DNA of 64,000 bases from contig JAQURK010000002.1 in the NCBI GenBank assembly GCA_028715645.1, positions 756-64,755 of the forward strand, given 5' to 3'. The position numbers and the translations under genes are program-made. The stretch comes from Candidatus Omnitrophota bacterium (GTDB lineage Bacteria; Omnitrophota; Gorgyraeia; JABMQH01). Positions 546 to 56,881 of this stretch are shown here, piece by piece. The notes below the pieces were generated by a model that did no database searches, was not told where the DNA came from, and saw only the letters and a program-made list of their open reading frames with translations. Every line of letters starts with the position of its first letter. Position 1 is the first letter of the stretch.

Positions 546-2686
546 CGGGTCAAGTCAAGAAAAATGGGATATATAAACTTCGCCAATTTCTTTCCTATAA
601 TATCGCATCCTGTTTCATTAAAATGGGTAGAGGTGTTAAGCGGGTCATATTCATACATATTTCTATCCGGTTTTGTGAACATTTCATTGAAAGTATAAAT
701 TTTAAAACTATTATTTAATAAAACCTCGCGCTGCCAGTCTTCAATAAAGCCGGTGGCTACCAATGGTATTTTATGGTCCTTGGCTGTGTTGGCGAAATCA
801 CAAATATATTTTTTCCAGTTGTCGTTGCCAAGCATATAATGATATCGTGGAGGGACTCGATCCTTGGTGCGGGGAGGATGGGGCAGATGCACGGCGGTCT
901 CCCTGTCCTTGTCGGCCCTCGCTGTCCCTGTCAATCCTTCAATAAAAAGCAGTGCGTCTGTATAATTTTGTTCAAACCAACTATAAAAAAATTTCTCAGA
1001 CACGGCAGAGTATATAAATCTCTTCCACAAGAAAACCAATATATAACTTTTGTACACCATGTGATTTAAAAGTTTATTTTCAGGCTGGATATAGTTGCAT
1101 ACATGGGTATCGTTTATCGCGATTTGGAGAATAATCAAATTTGGATTAAAACGCAAGGCCCTGGTTTTAAGCAGTTCGATCTCCTGGGAGGTATTATAAC
1201 CCGGCACGCCGAAATTTAATACCTTGATCTTTACGTCTTTATTAAGGGTACTTAAATAATTTTCCATTATGTTGGGGTATGTATTATGCCAATCCTTCAC
1301 AGAGCTGCAAAAGGTATGGGAATCGCCTATCACGGCGATAACATAACTGCCGCTCAAATCCCTCATATCAAATTCATCCTGGCGCATTCCAAAACTGTTG
1401 ACTTGAGGGTACGCCGGGTTAAGTTCGTAAACAAGCTCTGGGTTTTTGCTTGAGACGTAGATAGATACCGGCTCTTTATATCGCAGATAAACTTCGGCTA
1501 TCAGAAGAATACTAAAAAATATAATTAGCATTTTTTTATATTCTCTAAGTTTGGAGGAGGCGGCAATTAATGAGGCCCTGATATCGGGCATCAATTCCTT
1601 TGTCAAAATTGCAATAAAGTACAAATGGAAAATTGTTCTAATGAAACAGGCCGGGGTCAGCAGGCTTTCCTTAAATCCGTCATAAGCGATAGGAAAATGA
1701 AAATACGTCGCAAAATCAAAAAGGGCTATCGGCACGATATCCTTCCAATTTCGCGCTCGCAGGATGAGAAATGGCGTGACCCATAAAATCCATTGAGGCG
1801 AATAGAATTTTGCAAAAAGCATAAACACCAAAATGGAAAGGGCCGCCCAGCGGATTATTTTTTGAAAAGAATCTATTTTACTAATCGCGGTTAACGGCAT
1901 GACTGCAAATTGAAGCATAAAAAATATAAAATACCAGATTTTAGTTTTTGATGTGACGCCCACCAGATACAGCAGGTAAAAAAAGGACTCCGCATTACAC
2001 CCTCTCCTCGCCTGAATTACATATGGAATTAAACAGGCCCTAAGCCCCCCGGTTAAAAACGTAGTAACTACTGCGGAAAAAATAACAAGAAAAAACATCG
2101 ATAATGCAACCACATCGATTTTTTTAAGCCGATAATATTGAAAACTTAAAAAAATAGGCAAAAGAACGAGCAGATACCATTTGGCTAAAATGCCCAATGA
2201 CAGGACAAGGATGGCCGCTTTGTGCCTGTTCTCTGATAAAAATTTTACGCTTAAGAGGCTTAAAAATACAGGGAAGATGTCATATCTGTAAAGTGAAAAA
2301 TAGAGCGACGCGGGCAAAAACATGGCTAATGCGAAATATCTGTGGTCTCTCCTTAGACGGTATAACAGTATCACGGAGGCCAAGAAAAAAATAAGCATAA
2401 TAGCCGAAAAAATGATCGAATATCCCTGGACCGTATAATTAATTCTTAAAAGGGAAAGTAGAACGTGCGGCACCGCAAATAGGCATACTGCAAGCTGCGG
2501 GTATTCAGAACCTATATCCTTATATGGAACTTTCTTAAGAGGATACCACATCCCTTCGTCATGATAGCGCTTTCTGTCACAAGGATCGTTCAAAAACCTT
2601 ATACTATGGCCCTTTTCCGCGTAGTACAACAGACCTATAAAAAGTAAAATAAAAATCAGAATGATTAAAATCCAATGATTTTTCAT
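542..2686 (-). CDS. Polytopic membrane protein fused to a C-terminal SGNH/GDSL hydrolase domain (possible glycan O-acyl modification enzyme)
   Basis: 714 aa. The N-terminal ~400 aa are strongly hydrophobic, with roughly 11 predicted TM helices. The C-terminal part carries GDSL/SGNH blocks (VIGDSHT; GVPGYNT; D..THFNETG). Overlaps the neighbouring gene by 4 nt. Confidence 0.6.
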   Translation of the reverse strand: MKNHWILIILIFILLFIGLLYYAEKGHSIRFLNDPCDRKRYHDEGMWYPLKKVPYKDIGSEYPQLAVCLFAVPHVLLSLLRINYTVQGYSIIFSAIMLIFFLASVILLYRLRRDHRYFALAMFLPASLYFSLYRYDIFPVFLSLLSVKFLSENRHKAAILVLSLGILAKWYLLVLLPIFLSFQYYRLKKIDVVALSMFFLVIFSAVVTTFLTGGLRACLIPYVIQARRGCNAESFFYLLYLVGVTSKTKIWYFIFFMLQFAVMPLTAISKIDSFQKIIRWAALSILVFMLFAKFYSPQWILWVTPFLILRARNWKDIVPIALFDFATYFHFPIAYDGFKESLLTPACFIRTIFHLYFIAILTKELMPDIRASLIAASSKLREYKKMLIIFFSILLIAEVYLRYKEPVSIYVSSKNPELVYELNPAYPQVNSFGMRQDEFDMRDLSGSYVIAVIGDSHTFCSSVKDWHNTYPNIMENYLSTLNKDVKIKVLNFGVPGYNTSQEIELLKTRALRFNPNLIILQIAINDTHVCNYIQPENKLLNHMVYKSYILVFLWKRFIYSAVSEKFFYSWFEQNYTDALLFIEGLTGTARADKDRETAVHLPHPPRTKDRVPPRYHYMLGNDNWKKYICDFANTAKDHKIPLVATGFIEDWQREVLLNNSFKIYTFNEMFTKPDRNMYEYDPLNTSTHFNETGCDIIGKKLAKFIYPIFLDLTR

Positions 2687-2697
2687 ACAAGGTCCAA

Positions 2698-2856
2698 TTA
2701 AAATATGGCGTAAATAAACGGGGCTACTGCGGATCCTTCGCTAAATATAATCAAAAAGCTGGCTAATATCAGGATTATTATTATTGGCAGAAGCCAATAC
2801 CTTTTCCTGCATCTTAAGAATTCCCATAATTCAGCGACCAATTCAAGCTTACTCAT
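2698..2856 (-). CDS. Small membrane protein, DUF5989/SxtK-like (copy 1; absent from the ORF track because it is under 60 aa)
   Basis: 52-aa ORF MSKLELVAELWEFLRCRKRYWLLPIIIILILASFLIIFSEGSAVAPFIYAIF. Resembles the short 'ELWEFL...RKKYWLLPI...GSAVAPFIYTLF' peptides that accompany carbamoyltransferase/SxtJ genes. A tandem paralog follows. Confidence 0.5.
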   Translation of the reverse strand: MSKLELVAELWEFLRCRKRYWLLPIIIILILASFLIIFSEGSAVAPFIYAIF

Positions 2857-2872
2857 CTAATCTCATATTATT

Positions 2873-3031
2873 TTAAAAAAACGTGTACAGAAAAGGAGAC
2901 AGAATCGAGCTTTCGGTAAATATAATTAAAAGGCCTAATAACAGAAGAACTATTACTATTGGTAAAAGCCAATATCGTTTCCTGTATTTTAAAAATTCCC
3001 AAAGTTCCCTGACCAGCCGAAATTTACCCAT
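2873..3031 (-). CDS. Small membrane protein, DUF5989/SxtK-like (copy 2, tandem paralog)
   Basis: 52-aa ORF MGKFRLVRELWEFLKYRKRYWLLPIVIVLLLLGLLIIFTESSILSPFLYTFF. About 70% nucleotide identity to the adjacent copy across a ~115-nt unit. Confidence 0.5.
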   Translation of the reverse strand: MGKFRLVRELWEFLKYRKRYWLLPIVIVLLLLGLLIIFTESSILSPFLYTFF

Positions 3032-4043
3032 TCAACCTTCTTTTCCCTATCATCAAAAAAAGTCCCCCTTCCCTATGGCCTGTAAATACAAGTCTGCCTT
3101 GCGCTGTAAAATGGCTTAGGGCATTTCCCCTTGGAGATGCCCTGAACAGGCGTTCCTTTTCTGAAAAAGGTTCGAAGGTTATCTTTGGTATGCTATTTAC
3201 AAAATCAAAGCCTGTCTGGTCAAACCATCTCAGCACCTCTCCAACCGTATGTTTCGATTCATGGGGGTTTTTATACTGGTCAAGAAACCAGGTATTTTTC
3301 TTAACGCCTCCCGTATCTTTCCGTTTTAACTGTTTATCGAAAATCACTGATTTTTCGCCAAATACACTGAAGACAAGCCGCTGGATATCCGTTGCCAGTC
3401 GCCCATATCTATTGTACAGGCCCACCATTATAAATCCGCCTTTTTTTACAAGCCCGGCTATGGACTTAAATCCCAAAAATGGATCGCTGGTATGATGGAG
3501 AACGCCGTTGCAGATAACAAGCGGGAAACTCTTCTCTTTAAATATGGGCCTGAAAAGATTCATCTGATAAAACCCGGCGTTCCTTAGATCGTTTTTTTCC
3601 TTAAACTCCTGCGCCAACCGCAAAGAATTTAAACATATGTCGGCCCCAAACACGCGCCTGTTTGCGATGCCCAAAAAATTGCTTAACTGTCCTGTCCCGC
3701 ATCCGACCTCAAGCACCCTTATGTTAAAAGGTATCTGCTCATTAAGCATGCGCGCAAAAAAACCCTTCTCGGCCTTGTTGACCAGATCGCCCGCGTCTTC
3801 CAGATCGTCGTAGTTTGGAAATGGCGTCTTTTCATAAAAGGATTTTATAACCGAGGTGACATCGCCTTGTGATTCGTCCCAATCATTCGGCCAAAAAAGA
3901 AGAGGCACCCCGCCCTCAAAGCGGTAATTATTTCCGCATCCCTTGCACCTTATGGCGCCAGAGAACATCTCTAATCCGCCGCTGCATATGGGGCATATAA
4001 AAATCTCCATATTTTCGAGCATATGGGTCATTGGCGAGCTCAT
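3024..4043 (-). CDS. Class I SAM-dependent methyltransferase with an N-terminal Trm112-like zinc ribbon
   Basis: CPICSGGL...CKGCG zinc-ribbon motif, followed by a Rossmann SAM-binding motif (VLEVGCGTGQLS). Confidence 0.7.
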   Translation of the reverse strand: MSSPMTHMLENMEIFICPICSGGLEMFSGAIRCKGCGNNYRFEGGVPLLFWPNDWDESQGDVTSVIKSFYEKTPFPNYDDLEDAGDLVNKAEKGFFARMLNEQIPFNIRVLEVGCGTGQLSNFLGIANRRVFGADICLNSLRLAQEFKEKNDLRNAGFYQMNLFRPIFKEKSFPLVICNGVLHHTSDPFLGFKSIAGLVKKGGFIMVGLYNRYGRLATDIQRLVFSVFGEKSVIFDKQLKRKDTGGVKKNTWFLDQYKNPHESKHTVGEVLRWFDQTGFDFVNSIPKITFEPFSEKERLFRASPRGNALSHFTAQGRLVFTGHREGGLFLMIGKRRLNG

Positions 4044-5219: not shown

Positions 5220-7037
5220 TTAGTCTAATTCAAACTCCTTTCTCCAATCGGTCTCTTCTTGAACATACCTCTGCTTGTGTTTATCCAAAAGAAAGCTCCC
5301 CATCACCAGGTAATCCATGTTTGTACGCATGAAGCAGCGGTAGGCCTCTTCCGGTCGGCAGACTATCGGTTCTCCTCTTACATTGAAGGAGGTGTTAATT
5401 ATCACCGGACAGCCGGTCTTTTCGTAAAATTTTTTTATGAGCGCATAATATACGGGGTGCTCCGTTTCTTTTATTGTCTGGATTCTGGCGGAGTAATCCA
5501 CATGAGTTACCGCCGGTATCTCTGAGCGAGCTACATTCAATTTGTCTATCCCGAACAGACTCTCCTGTTCCCCGGTAATCGCTATTCGCTTTTCTTTGCG
5601 CACGGGGCTTACCAAAAGCATATAAGGGCTGTCCTGTTCCATCTCAAAGTATTCGGAGACGCTTTCGCTCAAGACCGTCGGCGCAAATGGTCTGAACGAC
5701 TCCCTGAACTTTATCTTAAGATTCATAACGGACTGCATCTTTATTGAACGGGCGTCGCCGATGATGCTCCTTGCGCCAAGCGCCCTTGGGCCAAACTCCA
5801 TCCTTCCCGAAAACCAGCCGATGACCTTTTCCTGGCTTATTAGTCCGGCGACGGTTTCCAGAAGGGCATCCCTGTCTAATTTATTATGCGGTATAGACCT
5901 CTCCTTTAAAAAGGCTTCTATCTCTTGATCGGTGAAACTGGGGCCCAGGAGAGAGGCTTTCTGTGAATCAGTCACGCCATTTGACTTCCTTTCGTTGCCA
6001 AGATACTGATACCAGATAAAAAGGGCTGTTCCTAACGCCCCGCCCGCGTCCCCTGCCGCAGGTTGTATCCAGATATTCTTAAAGGGTCCGTCTTTTAAAA
6101 TCCGGCCGTTTCCGACGCAATTTAACGCGACCCCGCCGGCCAGGCACAGATTGTCTTTTCCCGTTTTCTTATGGACGCGCCTTGCCGACCTGAGCATAAT
6201 CTCCTCGGTAACAACCTGTATTGACCTCGCCAAATCCATGTCTTTCTGCGTAATTTTTGATTCGGGTCTTCGCGGAGGGCCGCCAAATAATTTGTCAAAC
6301 CGTCGATTCGTCATCGTGAGCCCGACCGCGTAATTAAAATATTTCATATTCATTTTAAAAGAGCCATCTTCCTTTAAATCCAGGAGTTCACTTAAAATCA
6401 TATCCACATATCTGGGCTTCCCATAAGGAGCGAGCCCCATTACCTTGTATTCCGCGGAATTCACCTTGAATCCCGTATAGTAGGTAAAGGCGGAATATAA
6501 AAGCCCCAGTGAATGCGGAAATCTCTGCTCTTCCAGTAATTCAATTCTGTTTCCGTCTCCCACACCAAAACTTGAAGTATCCCATTCACCCACAGCGTCC
6601 ATTGTCAATATCGCCGCGTCCTGAAACGGGGACGGGAAAAACGCCGATGCGGCATGGGATTCATGATGCTCTGGAAAAATAAGCTTACCCTTGTAATTCA
6701 ATTCATTACTGATGAAATCTGACATCCAGAGCCTCTGCTTAATCCAGATAGGCATGGCCTTCATAAAAGAGCGGATACCCCACGGGCTGTTTGCCAGATA
6801 CGTAAAAAGTATTCTCTCAAATTTTATAAAAGGCTTCTCATAAAAACCTATGAAGTCAACATCGCCTATGCCGATCCCACCTTCTTTCAGGCAATAGGCA
6901 ATCGCATTTTTAGGAAAATTGGCGTCGTGTTTTTTTCTTGTAAACCTTTCTTCCTGGGCGGCGGCCACTATCTCGCCGTCCTTCACAAGGCAGGCGGCCG
7001 AATCATGATAAAAACAGGATATCCCCAGAATATTCAT
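5220..7037 (-). CDS. Carbamoyltransferase (NodU/CmcH/SxtI family)
   Basis: 605 aa. The N-terminus MNILGISCFYHDSAACLV...PEHHESHAASAF is the Kae1/YgjD-like carbamoyltransferase domain, and a C-terminal YrdC-like domain follows. Confidence 0.85.
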   Translation of the reverse strand: MNILGISCFYHDSAACLVKDGEIVAAAQEERFTRKKHDANFPKNAIAYCLKEGGIGIGDVDFIGFYEKPFIKFERILFTYLANSPWGIRSFMKAMPIWIKQRLWMSDFISNELNYKGKLIFPEHHESHAASAFFPSPFQDAAILTMDAVGEWDTSSFGVGDGNRIELLEEQRFPHSLGLLYSAFTYYTGFKVNSAEYKVMGLAPYGKPRYVDMILSELLDLKEDGSFKMNMKYFNYAVGLTMTNRRFDKLFGGPPRRPESKITQKDMDLARSIQVVTEEIMLRSARRVHKKTGKDNLCLAGGVALNCVGNGRILKDGPFKNIWIQPAAGDAGGALGTALFIWYQYLGNERKSNGVTDSQKASLLGPSFTDQEIEAFLKERSIPHNKLDRDALLETVAGLISQEKVIGWFSGRMEFGPRALGARSIIGDARSIKMQSVMNLKIKFRESFRPFAPTVLSESVSEYFEMEQDSPYMLLVSPVRKEKRIAITGEQESLFGIDKLNVARSEIPAVTHVDYSARIQTIKETEHPVYYALIKKFYEKTGCPVIINTSFNVRGEPIVCRPEEAYRCFMRTNMDYLVMGSFLLDKHKQRYVQEETDWRKEFELD

Positions 7038-7966
7038 CTTGATTTAAACCAGTCCAGGGTAAGTTTGAGTCCGCGATCGAACTTTACGGAAGGGGTGATG
7101 CCAAGGTATGCCTTTAAGCCTTTGATATCCGCCTGTGTCTTTCTGGCGTCACCTTTACGGGCGGGGCCGAAGACAGGCTTTATTTTAGCGCCGAGGAATT
7201 TATTAAGGAATTTTATGATATCAAGCACGGAATAGCTGTCTCCGCATCCAACATTGATGACCCGGCCCGCGGCCTTTTTTGACAGGGCCGCGGCAAGATT
7301 TGCCTCAACTACGTTGAAAACGTAGGTAAAATCCCTCGATTGTACGCCCGTGCCGTCCACCATCGGGCTTTCTCCCTTAATCATCCTTGAGATAAATGCC
7401 GGTATTACGGCCGAATATTTGGATTCCGGGTTCTGCCTTGGGCCGAAAACATTGAAATACCGAAGCGAAACCGTCTCAAGGCCAAAGGTGGCGCTGTAGA
7501 CGCCGCAGTAATATTCACCTGCCAGTTTTGAGGCGCCGTACGGGGAAAGCGGGTTCAATAAGATATCCTCTTCCTGCGGAAATTTATCTACATTCCCATA
7601 TACCGAACTGCTTGAGGCATAGACAATCCTTTTTACCTTGGTCCTGTGGGCCGCTATGAGGACATTTAATGTCCCTGCGACATTTGTCTCGTTGCACAAT
7701 GTGGGGTTTTCAACGGATTTGGGCACGGAACGAAAGGCGGCCTGATGGATTACATAATCAATATCCTTCGAAACCTTTTCCATCAGCCCCAGGTCCCTTA
7801 TATCGCCTTCTATAAGCTCTATCCTTTTTAAAAAAGGCTCGAGGTTCTCCCTTTTACCGGTAATAAAATTGTCTATAACCCTTACTTCCTCGCCCCTCTT
7901 TACCAACTCCTCGACGATATTTGAACCTATGAAACCGGCGCCTCCGGTAACAAGATATCTGCTCAT
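7034..7966 (-). CDS. NAD-dependent nucleotide-sugar epimerase (UDP-GlcNAcA/UDP-GlcNAc 4-epimerase-like, TviC/WbpP family)
   Basis: GGAGFIGSN Rossmann motif, YxxxK active-site region, 310 aa. Paired with an adjacent UDP-sugar dehydrogenase. Confidence 0.75.
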   Translation of the reverse strand: MSRYLVTGGAGFIGSNIVEELVKRGEEVRVIDNFITGKRENLEPFLKRIELIEGDIRDLGLMEKVSKDIDYVIHQAAFRSVPKSVENPTLCNETNVAGTLNVLIAAHRTKVKRIVYASSSSVYGNVDKFPQEEDILLNPLSPYGASKLAGEYYCGVYSATFGLETVSLRYFNVFGPRQNPESKYSAVIPAFISRMIKGESPMVDGTGVQSRDFTYVFNVVEANLAAALSKKAAGRVINVGCGDSYSVLDIIKFLNKFLGAKIKPVFGPARKGDARKTQADIKGLKAYLGITPSVKFDRGLKLTLDWFKSR

Positions 7967-10217: not shown

Positions 10218-11323
10218 TTCAGCAATGTTACTATAAATTCCTGCTGTTCCCGGGTCAATTCTGGATACATCGGTATCGCGAGCGTCTCTCTAGAGGCGCC
10301 TTCCGCCTCAGGGAAATCGCCTTTCTTATATCCCAAGTATTTAAAACATTCCTGGAGATGCAGGGGGATGGGATAATATGTCCTCGCGTCCACGCCGTTT
10401 TCGTTAAGCAGCCTTTCCGCGGTGTCTCTCTTTCTCTTATCCTTAAACCTTATGACGTATAAATGGTACGTATGGAATTTGCCCTTTGGGACAAAAGGAG
10501 TTATGATACCAAGGGGGCCCAATCTCTCGTCATAAAAAGCGGCCAGAGACTGCCTTTTTGCATTCCATTCGTCAATGTATTTCAGCTTCACCCTTAGGAT
10601 AGCCGCCTGGATGGTATCCATGCGGCTATTGTGGCCGATAACCGTATGCCGGTACCTTATCTTATTCCCCTGATTGCGGTAGATCTTTAAGGTATCGACG
10701 CACCGCGCGTCATCCGTTAAAACCATGCCCGCGTCGCCATAGGCGCCAAGGTTCTTTCCGGGATAAAAACTGAAGCAGCCCGCGTCGCCCATTGAACCCG
10801 CCTTTTTGCCGTTAAAGGCCGCTCCGAATGCCTGCGCCGCGTCCTCAACAACCTTTATATTATATTTCTTCGCTATTTTTAAAATTTCTCCCATGTCGGC
10901 CATTTGGCCATAGAGATGCACGGGAATCACCGCCTTGACCCTAGATCCTGCACTCTTGACCTTTAATAATTTCTCGAGTCCCTCTGGCGAAATATTATAC
11001 GTCCGGCGGTCCATATCGCAAAAAACCGGTCTTGCCCCGCACCTTGCTATGGCCCCGGCCGTCGCGAAATAAGTAAACGCGCATGTTATAACTTCGTCGC
11101 CTTCCTTTACCCCAAGGGCCTTAAGCGCAAGTAATATGGCATCTGTCCCGTTCGCTACCGCACAGGCATATTTTTTGCCGGCATATCTTGCGACCTCTTC
11201 CTCAAATTTATTTACGTCTTCTCCAAGTATAAACTGGCAGCTGTCAAGGGCGTCTTCTACCGCGCGCATTATTTCTTTTTTTACGCCGAGATACTGCCCT
11301 TTTAAATCAACTATCGGTATCAT
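10214..11323 (-). CDS. DegT/DnrJ/EryC1/StrS-family PLP-dependent sugar aminotransferase (FdtB/WecE-like)
   Basis: 369 aa. Conserved family motifs including the PLP-lysine region. Confidence 0.85.
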   Translation of the reverse strand: MIPIVDLKGQYLGVKKEIMRAVEDALDSCQFILGEDVNKFEEEVARYAGKKYACAVANGTDAILLALKALGVKEGDEVITCAFTYFATAGAIARCGARPVFCDMDRRTYNISPEGLEKLLKVKSAGSRVKAVIPVHLYGQMADMGEILKIAKKYNIKVVEDAAQAFGAAFNGKKAGSMGDAGCFSFYPGKNLGAYGDAGMVLTDDARCVDTLKIYRNQGNKIRYRHTVIGHNSRMDTIQAAILRVKLKYIDEWNAKRQSLAAFYDERLGPLGIITPFVPKGKFHTYHLYVIRFKDKRKRDTAERLLNENGVDARTYYPIPLHLQECFKYLGYKKGDFPEAEGASRETLAIPMYPELTREQQEFIVTLLK

Positions 11324-13875: not shown

Positions 13876-15990
13876 TCAACTGCCGCTGCCGGTCCTGGGC
13901 CCATAATAGCTTGCCCCCAGTTTAAGCGGCAATTCGGGGAAGGCCTTAAGGCGGAATATAACCCATAAAGTATTGGCTTCACCGACCGAATAAGTGACCT
14001 CCATCTCCCAGCAATGAAGGTCTCGGGTCACTGAATATTCCTGCGCCTTCATCTCATTTCCCTTGAACTCATACCTCTCATAAACCCTGATCTTCCATCT
14101 GGGGGTAAGCCTTGTCTCAAGTTCTGTGGTCAGCTGTGAGCTGTCGCCCTCTTCATATATGTGTCCCGCCCCGATCCGCCAGTTATCCTTGGGATCATGC
14201 GCGGTAAGATCCGTCTTTAAGGATTTAAGGTCATTCCATTTAAGGTCATACAACGCGGTCTGTTTTAAAAAAAGCCAGTTATAAGGCCGTATCTCAAGAT
14301 CGGAGGCCAAATTTGTGAAACTGCTGTCCTGCTCCTTTCTTAAGAGATAATCGGTTTCAACCACCCATCTTAAAAGCTCCGCGGCGACAAGGGAGTCGTT
14401 TTCAAGCCTTTTGGTCTGCAGCTTATTCTCAAACGAAATGCCGATGCCGTTTCTTGAGTCCACCTTGTCGGTTTCGTCGAACTCAAACAGGTCCTGCGGC
14501 AGGAGGGTCGGTTTGCTTACATAAAAATAACTAAGGGTCGGCATGAATATATGGCGCAGGCCCTCTATGTCCAGGTTCATGAAATTTGTCCGGTAATCGT
14601 AGATCCTGTAAAAATTAGTGCTTAGATCGGCGCCCGAATACAATGCCCCTCTGAACCGCTCCTTGTCCGTTGAAGCCTCCCTCGTGTACAAAGTTTCTCT
14701 CGCAGCGATATAAGGGTCGACGCTTAAAAAATCCATGAACCTGAACGGCAGCGAGGCCTGGTTGTATGTATCGGCCCTTACAACGTTATTATCCTCGCCG
14801 GAATCCGCGTCCTTTTTATTAAGATTTACGACATCGAAATCCCCTTTATAAAAAAACGGCAGCCCTTCTAACAAGCGCTGATTTTTGATATTTAATTCAG
14901 CTTCGGGCAGGCGCTCGGTCTCCGTAAAAAACCGGTTTACCCTTTTTTCGGCAGTGAGGGTTGCGGCATAATTTGGGCGGGTATGGATAACGGAAACAAG
15001 GCTTTTAGGCTCGGGTTCCCTTTCGAATTCCTCCCTGTAAAAAAAATCTTTTGTAAAACTTATGTCGCTCATTCTGTGGTATTCCAATATTGCCGTGGTA
15101 TCGGGCCGCATTTCCCACTTATGCCTGTACATGACGCGCCAGCGGTCCGTATTGCTGTGCCTGACCTTGTCCCTTTCATCTATAAAATAGGTCCTGAGAT
15201 ATCCCTTTCCGATTGCCTTATTTTTATAACTGTAGTCTACGCCTTCACCGACTCCTTTATTTTGACGGTAATCGAGATGCAGGTTTCCTTTTACGTCGTC
15301 GCTGAGGTTGTACCTGTAAGATGATAATAGATAACTTCCCCACACCTTGTCACGGCCCGGCACAAGGCTTATCTTGGGGAACTTCTCTTTCATGGGCTGG
15401 CTATAGACAGGCAGATATAAAATGGGGACGCCTCCTACATCAAAGGTTACATTTTTAGCGACGACCCTCTTGCCAAGGAATATCTTTACCTGCCTTGAAC
15501 GGATCCTGTAATGAGGTTTGGGCAGATCGCAGGTGGTAATATAGCCGTTTTTTATGTCTATCTCATCAGGGCTTACCTTATTGAGTTCATCGCCGCCGGC
15601 ATACCAGACACCGGCCGTTGCGACCCCTTTTAAGATCACCCCTGTCTCATTCTCAAAATTATACCTGATGCTCTCCCCCTTAAGCACCTCATCGCCTCTG
15701 GTGATAACAACGTCTCCTTCGGCTATCGCATCCTTGGAATCTAAGAAGGCGGTAACCTGTTTGCAGGTCATTCGAATATCCTTGTATTTGACTATAACGT
15801 TCCCTTTACCTACTACTTTTTTTTCGGTATCGAAGTACTCAACCTGGTCACCGTTGACTTCCACGGGTAGCGTCCCGATGTCTGTATCAGATGCGGCATA
15901 AACAAGGGTCGATAGTCTATGGTCTATGGTCAATAGTCCGAAAAATAAAAAAACTGCCGAAAATAAATTTATCTTATGAAAAATTTTCAT
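13876..15990 (-). CDS. lptD: LPS-assembly outer-membrane protein LptD (OstA family)
   Basis: Signal peptide, N-terminal OstA-like domain, and a long C-terminal beta-barrel region with alternating aromatic residues. 704 aa. Confidence 0.7.
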   Translation of the reverse strand: MKIFHKINLFSAVFLFFGLLTIDHRLSTLVYAASDTDIGTLPVEVNGDQVEYFDTEKKVVGKGNVIVKYKDIRMTCKQVTAFLDSKDAIAEGDVVITRGDEVLKGESIRYNFENETGVILKGVATAGVWYAGGDELNKVSPDEIDIKNGYITTCDLPKPHYRIRSRQVKIFLGKRVVAKNVTFDVGGVPILYLPVYSQPMKEKFPKISLVPGRDKVWGSYLLSSYRYNLSDDVKGNLHLDYRQNKGVGEGVDYSYKNKAIGKGYLRTYFIDERDKVRHSNTDRWRVMYRHKWEMRPDTTAILEYHRMSDISFTKDFFYREEFEREPEPKSLVSVIHTRPNYAATLTAEKRVNRFFTETERLPEAELNIKNQRLLEGLPFFYKGDFDVVNLNKKDADSGEDNNVVRADTYNQASLPFRFMDFLSVDPYIAARETLYTREASTDKERFRGALYSGADLSTNFYRIYDYRTNFMNLDIEGLRHIFMPTLSYFYVSKPTLLPQDLFEFDETDKVDSRNGIGISFENKLQTKRLENDSLVAAELLRWVVETDYLLRKEQDSSFTNLASDLEIRPYNWLFLKQTALYDLKWNDLKSLKTDLTAHDPKDNWRIGAGHIYEEGDSSQLTTELETRLTPRWKIRVYERYEFKGNEMKAQEYSVTRDLHCWEMEVTYSVGEANTLWVIFRLKAFPELPLKLGASYYGPRTGSGS

Positions 15991-27678: not shown

Positions 27679-29388
27679 TTAAAAAAGTTTTATATGATCT
27701 AAAACGCTATCGGCGGGAACTATTACCCTGTTTCCGGTCCTTCGGTCTTTGATTTCGACTTTTTTGGCCTCGAAATGGCGGTCACTTACGATTATCTGGT
27801 AGGTAAACCCAATAAGATCGGCATCCTTGAATTTGACCCCTGCCCTGTCGTCTCTATCATCCAATATAACTTCTACATACCTCTTATCTAACACCGCATA
27901 TATTTCTTCTGCCATGTCCATAAGTTTTTTATCCGCGGAGTTAACAGGTATAATAACCACCTTGAATGGGCTGATTGAAACCGGCCAGATTATGCCGTTT
28001 TCATCGTTATTCTGTTCTATGGCAGCCGCCGCAATCCGGTTTACGCCTATACCATAGCATCCCATGATCATTGGTTGTTCCCTGCCCTGTTCATCCAGGT
28101 ATGCCGCGCCCAGAGGCTTCGAATATTTGGTTCCTAATTTAAAGGTATGTCCCACTTCTATGGCGGTTTTTAATTTGATTTGCTTGCCGCATCTTGGGCA
28201 CATATCGTCGGGCGTGATGTATCTCAGGTCGGCCCATTCCTCAACCTGAAAATCCCTGCTTAGGTTTACATTTATAAGATGTTTATCTTTTTTATTCGCC
28301 CCTGTGATAAAATCAGTCATAGTGGAAACGCTGTAATCGGCCGCTATTCTTGTTCCTTTTAAATCAACAGGCCCGCTAAAACCAAGAGGGCCTCCCGTAA
28401 CAGATTTTATTGTGCCTTCATCCGCCAGTTCAAGGATTTCGCATTTTAAGTACTTTTTTAGTTTGGCTTCATTTACCTCATGATCGCCCCTTACCAGGAC
28501 CGCTACAGGTTGACCGTCCGCCTTGTATATAAGCGTCTTTACCATTTTCTCGGCAGGGAACTTAAGCAGCGCGCTGACTTTTTCAATAGTCGTCACGCCG
28601 GGGGTGTCCACTTCCTTAAGAGACGCCAATTGGGTCTTGGGTCTATGGTCAATGGTCAATGGTCTATGGTCTTTAATTGCCGCCACTTCCCGGCTTGCAG
28701 AATACCCGCATGAATCGCATATCACGATTAAATCCTCGCCCACCTCTGAAGGCACCATGAATTCATGAGATACGTTTCCCCCCATAAATCCGGGGTCCGC
28801 TTCAACAGGGATGTAATCGAGCCCGCATCTTGAAAAAATACTGCAATAGGCCTCATACATCTTTGCGTAGCTCTTATCCAGGCCCTCCAGGTCACGATCA
28901 AAACTATAAGCGTCCTTCATTATGAATTCTTTCGAACGCAAGATCCCGAATCTGGGCCTGGGTTCGTCTCTGAATTTTGTCTGGATCTGATAAAGTATCT
29001 GCGGGAGCTGCTTGTAGGACTTGACTTCGCCGGCGACAAGAGAGGTTATTATCTCTTCGTGCGTCGGCCCAAGCACGCACTCCTTGTCATGCCTGTCTTT
29101 AAACTTTATTAGCACATCGCCAAGGAGATCATATCTGCCTGTCTGTCTCCATAATTCCGGCGGTTGTATGGCCGGCAAAAGCACTTCCTGGGCGCCTTTT
29201 TTATTCATTTCATCGCGAATAATTTTTTTTACCTTATCGAGCACGCGAAGGCCAAGAGGCAGGTATGAATATGTGCCCGAAGTAAGTTTTCGGATAAGGC
29301 CCGCGCGGACCATCAGGATGTGGCTTTTGGCCTCAGCGTCCTGCGGCGCTTCTTTAAGGGTTGGAATAAGGGCTCGAGTCCATCGCAT
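27679..29388 (-). CDS. proS: Proline--tRNA ligase
   Basis: 569 aa, class II aaRS motifs, N-terminus MRWTRALIPTLKE.... Confidence 0.9.
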   Translation of the reverse strand: MRWTRALIPTLKEAPQDAEAKSHILMVRAGLIRKLTSGTYSYLPLGLRVLDKVKKIIRDEMNKKGAQEVLLPAIQPPELWRQTGRYDLLGDVLIKFKDRHDKECVLGPTHEEIITSLVAGEVKSYKQLPQILYQIQTKFRDEPRPRFGILRSKEFIMKDAYSFDRDLEGLDKSYAKMYEAYCSIFSRCGLDYIPVEADPGFMGGNVSHEFMVPSEVGEDLIVICDSCGYSASREVAAIKDHRPLTIDHRPKTQLASLKEVDTPGVTTIEKVSALLKFPAEKMVKTLIYKADGQPVAVLVRGDHEVNEAKLKKYLKCEILELADEGTIKSVTGGPLGFSGPVDLKGTRIAADYSVSTMTDFITGANKKDKHLINVNLSRDFQVEEWADLRYITPDDMCPRCGKQIKLKTAIEVGHTFKLGTKYSKPLGAAYLDEQGREQPMIMGCYGIGVNRIAAAAIEQNNDENGIIWPVSISPFKVVIIPVNSADKKLMDMAEEIYAVLDKRYVEVILDDRDDRAGVKFKDADLIGFTYQIIVSDRHFEAKKVEIKDRRTGNRVIVPADSVLDHIKLF

Positions 29389-29410
29389 GTTAGTTATTAG
29401 TCGTTAGTCT

Positions 29411-30529
29411 TTAGTCTTTTAGACGGGTTATCTCTCTTAGCAAAACAGTTACAAAATCTTTCTCGCTTACTTTTCTTTCGGGCTTTCCTTTTTTAAACAG
29501 CAGGCCGCATTTCTTGCCGGCGGCGATGCCGATGTCGGCCTCTTCGGCCTCGCCGGGGCCATTCACGACGCAGCCCATGATTGCCACCTTAAGCGGTTGG
29601 GCCAATAGTCGATGGCCCCTTCGGGAGGCTTCGCACTCTATGGTCAATAGTCTTTTTGTTAAGATATCAACAATTTTTATCAGATCGACTTCGCAGCGGC
29701 CGCAGGTAGGACAGGAAATAATATCTATCCCGCCTTTTTTTAATCCCAACGCCCTTAAAATTTCTTTTCCGGAGGCGACTTCATCTTCCGGGCTGCCTGT
29801 CAAAGAAACGCGTATGGTATCACCTATGCCTTCCGAAAGCAGCGTTCCTATCCCTATGCTTGACTTAATTATGCCCTTATCTAGAGGCCCGGCAGCCGTG
29901 ACGCCCAAATGAAATGGATAGTCGCATTTTCCCGACATTTCCCTGTATGCGTCTATGGTAGTAACTACGTCGGAGGCCTTTAATGATATAATTATATCAC
30001 GAAAATCCAGGTCTTCAAAAAGCTTTATGTACGCCAGCGCAGCGCGTGTCATTGCGAGCGAAGCGAAGCAATCTCTATTTTGAGATTGCTTCGGCGCTTC
30101 GCGCCTCGCAATGACATTAGGCACCGATCCAGAATTCACACCGATTCTTATCGGTATCTTTTTTTTCTTCGCCAGCCTTATTACGTCCGCAATGTCTTCT
30201 TTACGCCTTATGTTTCCCGGGTTCAACCGTATCTTGTCCGCTCCGCTTTTTATCGCTTCCAGGGCGAGGCTGTGCTGGAAATGGATGTCTGCGACGAGAG
30301 GTATATTTATTTTTTTCTTTATCGCCTCGATTGCCCTGGCGGCTTCCATATCCGGCACCGCGACCCTGACAATATCGCAGCCGGCGCGCTCAAGCCTCTT
30401 TATCTGTCTTATGGTGCCGGCAACATCCCTTGTATCGGTCTTGGTCATGGATTGGATGGAAATTGGCGCATTGCCGCCGATCTTAACATCCCCCACTTTA
30501 ACCAATCTTGTTTTTCGTCTTTCTATCAT
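29411..30529 (-). CDS. ispG: 4-hydroxy-3-methylbut-2-en-1-yl diphosphate synthase (flavodoxin)
   Basis: TIM-barrel N-terminal domain (IQSMTKTDT...), C-terminal 4Fe-4S CxxC...C domain, 372 aa. Carries an in-frame palindromic repeat insertion. Confidence 0.9.
   Translation of the reverse strand: MIERRKTRLVKVGDVKIGGNAPISIQSMTKTDTRDVAGTIRQIKRLERAGCDIVRVAVPDMEAARAIEAIKKKINIPLVADIHFQHSLALEAIKSGADKIRLNPGNIRRKEDIADVIRLAKKKKIPIRIGVNSGSVPNVIARREAPKQSQNRDCFASLAMTRAALAYIKLFEDLDFRDIIISLKASDVVTTIDAYREMSGKCDYPFHLGVTAAGPLDKGIIKSSIGIGTLLSEGIGDTIRVSLTGSPEDEVASGKEILRALGLKKGGIDIISCPTCGRCEVDLIKIVDILTKRLLTIECEASRRGHRLLAQPLKVAIMGCVVNGPGEAEEADIGIAAGKKCGLLFKKGKPERKVSEKDFVTVLLREITRLKD
30047..30115. repeat. Imperfect palindromic element (GTCATTGCGAG...CTCGCAATGAC, ~30-nt arms) inserted in-frame in ispG
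   Basis: gtcattgcgagcgaagcgaagcaatctc tattttga gattgcttcggcgcttcgcgcctcgcaatgac. Translates within IspG as VIARREAPKQSQNRDCFASLAMT. Confidence 0.6.
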
Positions 30530-30622
30530 TGTTAAGTAAAAAAGAAAAAGTAAAAACCGAAACCAAAAAGTTTTAACTTTTAACTTGTGATTTTACCTTT
30601 TTACTTTTGAATTTTGACTTAA

Positions 30623-31723
30623 TCACCGTTTTAATATAAATTTTAGCGTATCGCTGTAAAACACAAATACCATTAGCGCAATCAATAAGAACAGGCCGGC
30701 TTGTGTTGCTATCTCCTGCGCCTTAGCGCTTAATGGTCGGCCCTTTATTTTTTCAATGATAAGGAACAGGATGTGGCCTCCGTCAAGGACGGGTATGGGC
30801 AAAAGATTGAATATTGCCAATGAGGCGCTAAGGATTGCCATCATCTGAAGAAGGTATACAAGACCCAGTTTCGCCGCCTGTCTTGTAATTATGAATATCC
30901 CTATCGGCCCGGTCATCGATTCCTTTACCGACATTTTTCCGGTCGCTATAAATAACAGCGATTTATAGGTGATCCCGGTAAGCCTTGCGATCTGCTGTCC
31001 GGCCTTGAAAAATGAGTCAAATAAACCATATCTTACGCTGATTACTTCTCCTGACGGCGATACGCCTATCAGCGAGATGACCCTCTTTTTCCCAAAAATA
31101 TCCGTGATCTCTTTTCTTTTTGGCGTCAGGGTTATTTCCCGTGTTTTTTTTACGCCGTCTGTCTCCCTTTCAACAATCAGTTTCAGGCTGCCGTCTGTTT
31201 TATTATGGATGATATCGGTAAGGGCCTCCCAATATTTTGTGGCCTTACCGTCAACGGAGATAATCCTGTCGTTTTGCTTCAGCCCCGCGCTCTCGGCGGG
31301 GTATCCCTTCAATATCTCGCCCACTCTGCTAGTGGCGGTAGGCGCCCCTATAAAAAACACAAACCAGAATAAAAGGAACCCCAGTAAATAATTCAAAAAA
31401 GGACCGCATAACACTATTAAAAACCTCTGCCAGACGGACTTTGAGAGGTATTCAAAACCCTCTCCCTTCGCCAGCGCCGGTTCATCACCGGCCATTTTTA
31501 CGTAACCGCCCAGGGGAATGAGGGAAACCGCGTAATCCGTGTCTCCTTTTTTGATTCCAAATAACCTTGGCCCAAACCCAAATGAGAATTTTTCGATCTT
31601 TACGCCCTGCCTTTTTGCGGCTATGAAATGGCCGAATTCATGGATTATCACAAGAATACTTAAAACAATCAAAAATGAGATTATTGGCAGCAAAGTTTTC
31701 TTACCTCCTCCCTTGACCAGCAA
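30623..31723 (-). CDS. rseP: RIP metalloprotease RseP (site-2 protease)
   Basis: HEFGH zinc motif in TM1, PDZ domain, and an LDGG motif in the C-terminal TM region. Confidence 0.85.
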   Translation of the reverse strand: MLVKGGGKKTLLPIISFLIVLSILVIIHEFGHFIAAKRQGVKIEKFSFGFGPRLFGIKKGDTDYAVSLIPLGGYVKMAGDEPALAKGEGFEYLSKSVWQRFLIVLCGPFLNYLLGFLLFWFVFFIGAPTATSRVGEILKGYPAESAGLKQNDRIISVDGKATKYWEALTDIIHNKTDGSLKLIVERETDGVKKTREITLTPKRKEITDIFGKKRVISLIGVSPSGEVISVRYGLFDSFFKAGQQIARLTGITYKSLLFIATGKMSVKESMTGPIGIFIITRQAAKLGLVYLLQMMAILSASLAIFNLLPIPVLDGGHILFLIIEKIKGRPLSAKAQEIATQAGLFLLIALMVFVFYSDTLKFILKR

Positions 31724-34337: not shown

Positions 34338-34419
34338 ACACGAATTAACACGAACAAACATCGAATTTACACGAATAAATATTCGTGGTAATTCGATAAA
34401 AATTCGTGTTAATTCGTGT
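34338..34419. promoter_or_regulatory. Phased array of CACGAA/TTCGTG half-sites forming a ~40-bp-arm imperfect palindrome upstream of uppS
   Basis: acacgaattaacacgaacaaacatcgaatttacacgaataa|atattcgtggtaattcgataaaaattcgtgttaattcgtg. Half-sites are spaced at about 10-12 bp. Confidence 0.45.
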
Positions 34420-42614: not shown

Positions 42615-42704
42615 GTTGGTTATAGGGTTTTTGGGGTTATTGAGTTTATTGGGTTAAAAAACCTGATAACCCTACAAACTCTATAAACCCTATAACCCTA
42701 TAAC
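42615..42704. repeat. Long imperfect palindrome (TATAGGGTT / AACCCTATA repeats, ~42-nt arms around an A6 loop) between clpP and the serC-like gene
   Basis: gttggttatagggtttttggggttattgagtttattgggtt aaaaaa cctgataaccctacaaactctataaaccctataaccctataac. Confidence 0.5.
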
Positions 42705-56822: not shown

Positions 56823-56841
56823 CTAATCTGTCTAGAACGGT

Positions 56842-56869
56842 CATTGCGGGGCGCTTGCGCCCCGCAATG
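56842..56869. repeat. Perfect 13-bp inverted-repeat hairpin (CATTGCGGGGCGC tt GCGCCCCGCAATG) in the short intergenic gap
   Basis: Seen directly. Shares GTCATTGCG/CGCAATG termini with the palindrome inside ispG. Possible terminator or REP-like element. Confidence 0.5.
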
Positions 56870-56881
56870 CCTTTTATAGAT

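Follow-up and report, generated by a model that had tools for sequence, protein, structure and literature searches.

How does a long palindrome come to lie within the reading frame of an essential gene without disrupting it? The question is raised by ispG, which encodes the iron-sulphur (Fe-S) enzyme IspG (GcpE), in a stretch of 64,000 nucleotides (nt) of Candidatus Omnitrophota contig JAQURK010000002.1; we refer to this whole 64-kb stretch as the window. A preliminary description, made from the letters alone, had reported an imperfect palindrome of about 68 nt in this gene, and our analysis bore it out at 30048-30115, with exact termini. We consider it probable that this element is an intragenic repeat of the repetitive extragenic palindromic (REP) type, an inverted heterodimer that is tolerated in a loop of IspG and that arrived there, or has been refreshed there, by a hairpin-dependent process.

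A palindrome in the reading frame of ispG

The host gene and the parts of the element are listed below by their positions in the window.

29411..30529, minus strand: ispG (GcpE), the host gene, 372 amino acids (aa), matching Pfam GcpE end to end (E = 9e-141)
30048..30115, no strand assigned: 68-nt palindromic element, an inverted heterodimer of two REP-like units, by its exact termini, its fold and its match to the family profile (E = 2e-14)
30048..30075, plus strand: short arm, GTCATTGCGAG-CGAAG-CGAAGCAATCTC, containing GCGAAGC
30076..30081, no strand assigned: loop TATTTT, from the fold predictions
30082..30115, minus strand: long arm, reading GTCATTGCGAG-GCGCGAAGCGC-CGAAGCAATCTC in the ispG sense and encoding VIARREAPKQS

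In window order the element reads GTCATTGCGAG CGAAG CGAAGCAATCTC TATTTT GAGATTGCTTCG GCGCTTCGCGC CTCGCAATGAC. The termini, GTCATTGCGAG and CTCGCAATGAC, are 11 nt each and exact reverse complements, and the terminal 11-mer has no further exact match anywhere in the window. GTC is found at both ends of the element and TGTC at its 5' end in the ispG sense; the flanking T (30047) and A (30116) extend it to a 70-nt palindrome with a TGTC tag. The short arm, which is the 3' arm on the ispG mRNA, encodes ..RDCFASLAMT, and GCGAAGC occurs in both arms, on one strand or the other.

The proposed check by RNA structure prediction returned a single long hairpin. In the ispG sense the RNA folded with −45.9 kcal/mol, compared to −23.0 ± 2.7 kcal/mol for 200 dinucleotide shuffles (z = −8.48), none of which folded as well, and the DNA of the element folded with −31.2 kcal/mol (z = −7.40). 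RNA of the opposite strand was equally stable (−42.6 vs −43.2 kcal/mol), so G-U asymmetry is absent, and with it any hint of a function at the RNA level. The long arm alone forms a REP-like hairpin of 5 base pairs (bp), an internal loop, 5 bp and a GAA loop (−8.9 kcal/mol, z = −2.2), and the short arm and the family consensus form 5 Watson-Crick pairs only (z about 0), in a stem that starts ATTGC..GCAAT. A scan for terminators and promoters found no terminator-like U-run after the hairpin on either strand, and an Rfam scan of 29300-30700 gave sub-threshold chance matches only, such as mir-4847, whose 22.5 bits fall short of the gathering threshold of 100.

The gene that carries the element is apparently intact. 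The protein matches a solved structure, PDB 3noy (E = 1e-96), and has 100% identity with a protein at NCBI that comes from a Candidatus Omnitrophota metagenome-assembled genome (MAG; 66-kb contig). All invariant alignment columns of IspG are intact, including C273, C276, C320 and E327, which we take to be the ligands of the Fe-S cluster. Because these residues are present and the gene arrangement around ispG (dxr-rseP-ispG-proS) is conserved, the gene looks functional. The element was said to lie in the frame without disrupting it, and this held for the whole open reading frame (ORF): it is read as V139-T161, VIARREAPKQSQNRDCFASLAMT, 23 residues, which the open frame predicts to be translated.

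The position of the insert within the protein had been given as the linker between the triosephosphate isomerase (TIM) barrel and the 4Fe-4S domain, and this proved incorrect. In HMMER alignments with 3noy and with 4mwa, a TIM-barrel domain on its own, the insert comes directly after the strand ..IRIGVNSGS. In an AlphaFold2 model (mean predicted local distance difference test, pLDDT, 89.4; predicted template modelling score, pTM, 0.83), strand E127-132 (IRIGVN) is the fifth strand of the barrel, which runs to about residue 262 and is followed by the Fe-S domain. Since the insert directly follows strand 127-132, its site is the β5-α5 loop inside the TIM-barrel domain. The model gives the insert a helix (137-144), a loop of low confidence (145-151, block pLDDT 53) and a second helix (152-173) that joins the element-encoded RDCFASLAMT to the native α5 without interruption.

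The segment was also expected to be longer than in E. coli, which it is, by 8 residues instead of the stated 7 or so; the same difference separates it from the IspGs of Aquifex and Bacillus. The excess is ~19 residues over the nearest empty-site IspGs of Omnitrophota (GSTAGRSMVK..). The length of 68 nt is 2 mod 3, so the insert is not a clean 68-nt addition, and the 3' end of the element (..GCA ATG AC) supplies a Met that aligns with the conserved Met (..xMVxxAL..) of all other IspGs.

The repeat family and its known relatives

To find further copies, the pattern GTCATTGCGAG-N(25-55)-CTCGCAATGAC was scanned against one genome per species (596 Gb), for which we estimate about one match by chance. 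It was found at at least 120 loci in at least 12 phyla, in 125 copies. The preliminary description had suggested a REP-like family or one of MITEs, miniature transposable elements with inverted repeats, and the scan supports a family of this general kind: the element of the window is a member of a pan-bacterial family of CGTC/TGTC-tagged palindromes. Cultured hosts include Sphingomonas, Bradyrhizobium, Methylocystis, Pedobacter, Mucilaginibacter, Chitinophagaceae and Nostoc; among the hosts known as MAGs are Chloroflexota, Nitrospirota, Planctomycetota, Desulfobacterota, Myxococcota, Bacteroidota, Ignavibacteria, Firmicutes, Methylomirabilota and several lineages of the candidate phyla radiation (CPR). 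The family is also present on 43 IMG/VR contigs.

The consensus of the family is (C/T)GTCATTGCGAG, a variable block (often CGNAGCG), AAGCAATCC, a loop, GGATTGCTTCG, a second block and CTCGCAATGAC(G/A). Position −1 is C in 77 copies and T in 39 (116/125 together), and position +1 is G in 77 and A in 42 (119/125). The consensus tail, ..GCAATCCAG at positions 22-29, fits CCA; in the window the tail is CTC. One or both arms contain GCGAAGC in 93 of the 125 copies, and one arm often bears a further GC-rich hairpin, its loop being TTCG or GAA. The variable blocks of the two arms covary, being identical in 20 of 24 informative copies with 9 expected, which indicates that the doublet behaves as a unit. 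Exact matches to the window copy's 32-nt long arm, GTCATTGCGAGGCGCGAAGCGCCGARGCAATC, were found at at least 120 metagenome loci with GC contents from 35% to 71%, where the arm is paired with various partner arms or stands alone, sometimes beside a classical CGTC-1 unit.

Most copies (111/125) lie outside long open frames, and clusters of copies occur. An array resembling a bacterial interspersed mosaic element was observed on an IMG/VR contig (L148, 3000-3450) and in L166, where three family copies at 156-nt spacing alternate with a second palindrome, CATCCTTCGAGG..CCTCAGGATGAG. On a contig labelled Klebsiella pneumoniae MAG (L092), a 142-nt repeat containing the palindrome is present three times in 8 kb (1536-1677, 5537-5678 and 7282-7430), twice direct and once inverted. 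We set this triple copy aside: the palindrome is part of the larger 142-nt repeat, and no transposase was identified there.

Copies within genes are a minority. For 14 of the 125, the surrounding frame runs without a stop for 60 codons or more in both directions, and three of these were confirmed within Pfam domains of real enzymes, namely PurH of an Anaerolineae MAG, a Mur ligase of a Liptonbacteria MAG and a GluQRS-like gene (class-I Glu/Gln tRNA-synthetase-like) of an alphaproteobacterium. The PurH (L082, 1384-3015) has the in-frame family copy at aa 209-232, and a second repeat-like insert, ..NPPPRSTQPELVEGWG.., was seen in its MGS-like domain. An in-frame single arm in L289 was left out of the count because it lies in an apparent membrane protein without a Pfam match. 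For 93 of the 125 copies, three to four of the six frames are free of stops; the closed frame reads ..IASLRSQ and then a stop.

Peptide strings like those of the element were reported to recur in hypothetical proteins, and HMMER confirmed this, often several times in one protein. An exhaustive search with the 33-aa insert retrieved 14 representative proteins at E ≤ 0.001, most of them with two to five matched stretches each, so that they are ORFs called across clusters of copies.

The closest published counterparts are the CGTC-tagged REPs, which have an unpaired CGTC, TGTC or CCTC tag at one end of each unit, a stem of 8-9 bp beginning with A-T pairs, a loop of 4-5 nt and a CCA tail (PMC3733652). 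They occur mostly as inverted dimers that can fold as one large stem-loop, and no dedicated transposase is assigned to them; most are intergenic, and in-frame intragenic dimers encode 20-30 aa, frequently within genes for housekeeping functions (PMC3733652). Among its members the group counts Neisseria dRS3 as well as RPE-4 and RPE-6 of Rickettsia, and it has been reported from five phyla (Di Nocera, De Gregorio and Rocco 2013, PMC3733652).

We reconstructed the CGTC-1 and CGTC-3 consensus from the peptide tables of that paper (PMC3733652); the family arm CGTCATTGCGAGCGAAGCGAAGCAATCCAG aligns with both CGTC-1 (CGTCATTCCCGCGAAGGCGGGAATCCAG) and CGTC-3 (CGTCATTGCCGGGCTTGACCCGGCAATCCA). The family shares the (C/T)GTC tag, a stem starting AT, the CC(A) tail and the form of an inverted dimer. 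It differs in its core, which is a GCGAAGC-type or other small hairpin with G/A mismatches and not a perfect 8-9 bp stem (for the CGTC-1 and CGTC-3 reference units, folding gave z of −4.6 to −4.8), and in its hosts, which span at least 12 phyla including CPR, with Omnitrophota as host here, versus the five published. Neither the DNA of the family nor its peptide strings appear in the text and supplements of PMC3733652 or in the searchable literature, where figures are not searchable and may hold an earlier depiction. With its stem as the one doubtful trait, the element is best placed among the CGTC-type REPs in the broad sense, as a heterodimer resembling a REP doublet forming a hairpin (REPIN).

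REPINs consist of two inverted REPs and a short spacer in a hairpin of 60-120 nt (Bertels and Rainey 2011, PMC3116915; PMC3337134). They are defined by GTAG-type REPs together with a cognate single-copy REP-associated tyrosine transposase (RAYT), whose gene typically has REPs on its flanks, and are mostly inherited vertically within lineages (PMC3116915; PMC3337134). The element of the window likewise has two inverted REP-like units with a spacer, a single hairpin and, in its family, covarying arms. Unlike REPINs, no RAYT was found near copies of the family, and identical arms are present in very different genomes.

Ogata et al. reportedly described the Rickettsia palindromic elements (RPE) in 2000 as 'selfish DNA in protein-coding genes'. 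The ispG element resembles them in being a palindromic repeat in frame in an essential gene, predicted to be translated as a surface-exposed tolerant segment, and this resemblance is functional only. It has a host of another phylum and no apparent relation in sequence to RPE-1, and the likeness to RPE-6 is at the level of the superfamily only, via CGTC-1. In a comparison confined to the peptide patterns of RPE-6 (CGTC-1), VIPAKAGI and DSRFRGND differ from VIARREAPKQS and DCFASLAMT of the window. The Rickettsia work is cited in PMC1779305, PMC10969869 and PMC3733652.

Bacterial MITEs are also found in genes, for example in Coxiella, as short non-autonomous inverted-repeat elements that extend or alter ORFs (PMC5896051). 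Unlike the element of the window, MITEs have terminal inverted repeats derived from an insertion sequence (IS) and target-site duplications; neither was seen here. The heptamer at the centre of the family arms, d(GCGAAGC), is an extraordinarily stable DNA mini-hairpin with a place in phage origins and synthetic uses (review PMC13037366). It is known as a physical motif and not as part of a repeat family, and any role for it in these arms is conjecture.

The IspG loop in relatives and the identity of the arms

The insertion was proposed to be specific to a lineage, and the alignment of IspG orthologs agreed. We compared the 120 closest IspGs, all Omnitrophota-like, over the segment from after GVNSGS (residues 130-135) to before SLKAS (182-186), which includes helix α5. 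One regular-expression mis-hit excluded, the segment is 26-64 aa long. The element is found in three of the 120 and several have an empty site, P0009, P0017, P0020 and P0024 having ~5 residues at the loop. The insertion is thus restricted to a lineage, within a loop that is hypervariable and that other repeats fill in sister lineages. DNA was available for seven ispG loci (the window, L001, L003, L004, L169, L170 and L171), and the loop contents outside the window are as follows.

L001 (protein P0003): a 122-nt version of the window family with extra internal hairpins, beginning at the same gene nt 415 after the same CCT AAT
L003 (P0012): a 72-nt sister element, GTCATCCTGAG..CTCAGGATGAC, at the same junction (GGT AAT)
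L169 (P0007), ispG at 2551-3678: an unrelated palindrome, CCCCTCACCCT..AGGGTGAGGGG, in the same loop (−50 kcal/mol, z = −8.3)
L170 and L171: tandem or complex repeats in the loop
L004 (P0009): an empty site
P0002: window family, as inferred from the peptide only, with a left arm equal to that of the window over 12 aa

Of the sister family, GTCATCCTGAG..CTCAG(G/A)ATGAC, L003 contains three copies within 21 kb, two of them intergenic (among 2302-2370, 6203-6270 and 10415-10486) and one in ispG. The palindrome of L169, CCCCTCACCCTACCCTCTCCCCAAAGGGGAGAGGGAAAGGGTGAGGGG, encodes PSPYPLPKGERERVRG, a peptide type also found in P0005, P0015 and P0027. A scan of metagenomes for the downstream junction of the element with ispG gave no matches in a collection that evidently lacks the samples of L001 and L002.

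Evidence on the history of the insert came from its nucleotides. Over the blocks shared by the window and L001, the element is identical at 54 of 54 nt, including 17 third codon positions (P about 2e-6). The third codon positions of the two ispG genes are 46.5% identical overall, and 38% and 50% identical in the 40 codons on either side. Because the arms are identical while silent positions of the gene agree at only ~46%, the insert is not a drifting relic. The arms would instead be kept identical by ongoing mobility, re-insertion or conversion, or by sequence-specific constraint; conversion against other copies, or a strong constraint of this sort, is possible.

A related operon, that of a more distant relative, carries the same variant elsewhere. 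On an ispG-proS contig (L201), positions 1982-2053 have the same 32-nt and 26-nt arms as the window with only the loop different, and there the element forms the end of ispG, as its last 12 codons (CVIARREAPKQSR) and stop, directly before the ribosome-binding site of proS. The C-terminus of this IspG is 53.5% identical to that of the window, and P0084 has a comparable C-terminal tail. The occurrence of the same variant at different positions in related operons is what mobility predicts.

Three further features of the window touch on the element or on IspG.

30080..30535, plus strand: spurious antisense ORF that starts inside the element and overlaps conserved ispG coding sequence
29603..29644, minus strand: second hypervariable segment of IspG (residues ~296-309, IECEASRRGHRLLA), in the Fe-S domain
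56838..56872, no strand assigned: single REP-like hairpin GGTCATTGCGGGGCGCTTGCGCCCCGCAATGCC between two minus-strand ORFs

The antisense ORF begins with MRLLRRFAPRNDI.., as was reported before. The second segment is a 12-residue insertion relative to 3noy, measures 27-49 aa in relatives and is weakly structured in the window (z −0.8 to −1.5). We compared its DNA in L170 (10001-11116), L171 (912-2057), L001 (319-1479) and L004 (7001-8050). In most relatives it consists of in-frame tandem heptanucleotide repeats, such as CTATACG x5, GCAATAC x4 or AATACTC x4.5, which give peptides such as YAIRYTLNAK, IRNTQYAIR and ILNTQYSILNT; the gain or loss of one 7-nt unit would frameshift an essential gene. 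In some relatives the segment is filled by another GTCAT-type palindrome. L003 has there (~10925-10970) a further palindrome, TATCCCTCGGGCC..GGCCCTCGGGATGAC, of a type (YPSG..RGPRDD) common to about nine relatives.

The hairpin at 56838-56872 is GGTCATTGCGGGGCGC TT GCGCCCCGCAATGCC; it has GTCATTGCG/CGCAATG in common with the family and resembles a single CGTC-3-type unit. Other repeats of the window include in-frame heptamers (GGTCTAT/GGTCAAT) in proS (27679..29388, minus strand) at 28632-28678, which encode DHRPLTIDHRPKT and recur at 15906-15938. Two long, intergenic-looking palindromes, at 34338-34419 (40+40 nt, short reiterated ACACGAAT-type units) and at 42618-42704 (38+38 nt, TATAGGGTT-type units), belong to repeat families other than that of the ispG element.

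Origin and persistence of the insert

The two inverted units of the element are not identical. Each begins from the same plan: the tag is (C/T)GTC, the stem ATTGC..GCAAT encloses a core of the GCGAAGC type, and the tail is CTC/CCA. If the element is a REP-type repeat that reached ispG by a hairpin-dependent process, the copy at codons 139-161 would be translated as a 23-residue helix-loop-helix whose C-terminal half extends the native helix. It could persist because the family has no stops in four of its six frames and because the loop appears length-tolerant in Omnitrophota IspG. Mobilisation is the weakest step of this scheme: single-stranded hairpin DNA would probably be recognised by a trans-acting enzyme encoded outside the window.

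Several observations weigh against this account. Translation of the insert rests on the open frame and not on observation. The short arm alone lacks the 8-9 bp stem that defines the published CGTC families. No direct repeats flank the element (cctaat and acgcgc in the window, cctaat and ggatat in L001), that is, there is no target-site duplication. A rough neighbour-joining tree of 40 IspGs was too star-like to tell one ancient gain from several, with the three element-bearing proteins neither grouped nor clearly separated. The family had been called genome-wide, which the window does not support: a search with the nhmmer family profile gave the ispG copy as the only full copy in 64 kb, the related single hairpin at 56838-56872 aside. 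A tblastn search with a single Omnitrophota Y1_Tnp query, of limited sensitivity, found nothing in the window, and in 291 element-bearing loci (2.1 Mb) it found two weak matches, none adjoining a copy.

No parent IS was found for the element. A Y1_Tnp gene (PF01797, IS200/RAYT-like) at 4435-4944 of L170, 5 kb upstream of ispG in an Omnitrophica RIFCSPLOWO2 genome, was considered and rejected. It is preceded by a hairpin of a different repeat type, GATAGGCGGGGTTTTCTAACCCCGC, and the ispG loop of L170 holds heptamer repeats and not the window family.

We weighed five other explanations. The insert could be an ancient one-off insertion or a locally grown loop, inherited vertically under neutral drift and with no link to a mobile family, and the junction and flanking VPN/LPS residues shared by the window, L001 and P0002 would fit this, as would the single copy in 64 kb. 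We nevertheless regard it as quite unlikely, given arms that are 100% identical over 54 nt against 38-50% at third positions of the gene, near-identical elements at other loci and in other hosts, and the exact 32-nt arm at at least 120 metagenome loci. Identity at the nucleotide level might alternatively reflect a hairpin kept for its action in cis on ispG mRNA or DNA, as a translation pause between β5 and α5, an RNase site or an attenuator. The very stable mRNA structure and a conservation of nucleotides beyond the needs of the protein speak for such a role. We judge it very unlikely because there is no U-run on either strand, the strands fold equally well, close relatives have an empty site or an unrelated loop sequence, and the same sequence is present at unrelated loci across phyla.

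Somewhat more weight is due to exaptation, in which the peptide of the element would now be required in IspG and would replace the LEKDLxEKYGxP helix-loop missing from Omnitrophota IspG. The predicted helix-loop-helix does mimic the canonical segment and extend α5, and the element does supply the conserved Met. The loop, however, has a pLDDT of about 53, the sister lineages P0009, P0017, P0020 and P0024 function with ~5 residues, and selection on the peptide does not explain identical third codon positions. Exaptation therefore seems unlikely to us, and the insert appears to be tolerated rather than required; the suggestion that such elements are domesticated into coding sequence gave way here to tolerance in a hypervariable loop, which accounts for the data.

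Two explanations dispense with a translated insert or with the insert itself. Mitochondrial 'byp' elements and the gap in phage T4 gene 60 are precedents for ribosome bypass, and a stable hairpin within a coding region could point to bypass or to removal of the insert from the RNA. This is highly improbable: the variants of 68, about 80 and 122 nt are all stop-free and each 2 mod 3 in length, which keeps the flanks in frame on read-through and would not be needed for bypass. Repeats are also able to mis-join metagenome assemblies, and the MAG contig could be a repeat-induced chimera or a product of faulty binning. An artefact of this kind is scarcely conceivable, as the flanks are collinear in-frame ispG and the same arrangement is present in independent JGI (two samples) and ENA/NCBI assemblies.

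A REP-type repeat tolerated in the IspG loop is an event of a kind already known from Rickettsia RPEs, intragenic REPs and REPINs; the ispG element is a new example and not a new phenomenon. A bolder possibility is that GTCATTGCGAG/GCGAAGC palindromes form one coherent, still-active class in most bacterial phyla, CPR and Omnitrophota among them, whose 30-nt arms would stay identical because a widespread trans-acting enzyme recognises them as a single-stranded hairpin. In Omnitrophota these palindromes and their sister families would recurrently be targeted to, or refreshed at, one and the same ispG codon and would give the enzyme structural residues. We think this doubtful; if true, it would amount to a cross-phylum REP system with a so far undescribed mobilisation mechanism and recurrent exaptation in an essential gene.

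For genome annotation, such elements yield spurious antisense ORFs and repetitive 'hypothetical proteins' in MAGs. For the biology of the host, the insert extends the phenomenon of Rickettsia RPEs and intragenic REPs to the Omnitrophota and, among proteins, to IspG, an Fe-S enzyme that is both essential and a drug target. In sister lineages at least three palindrome families, as well as tandem repeats, have filled the same IspG loop, which so provides a natural map of insertion tolerance; the reuse of a single ispG codon by two sister families is a point of interest beside the cross-lineage nucleotide identity. Arms that stay identical in hosts with genes saturated at silent sites, with no transposase found, sharpen the question of how CGTC-type REPs spread and are maintained.

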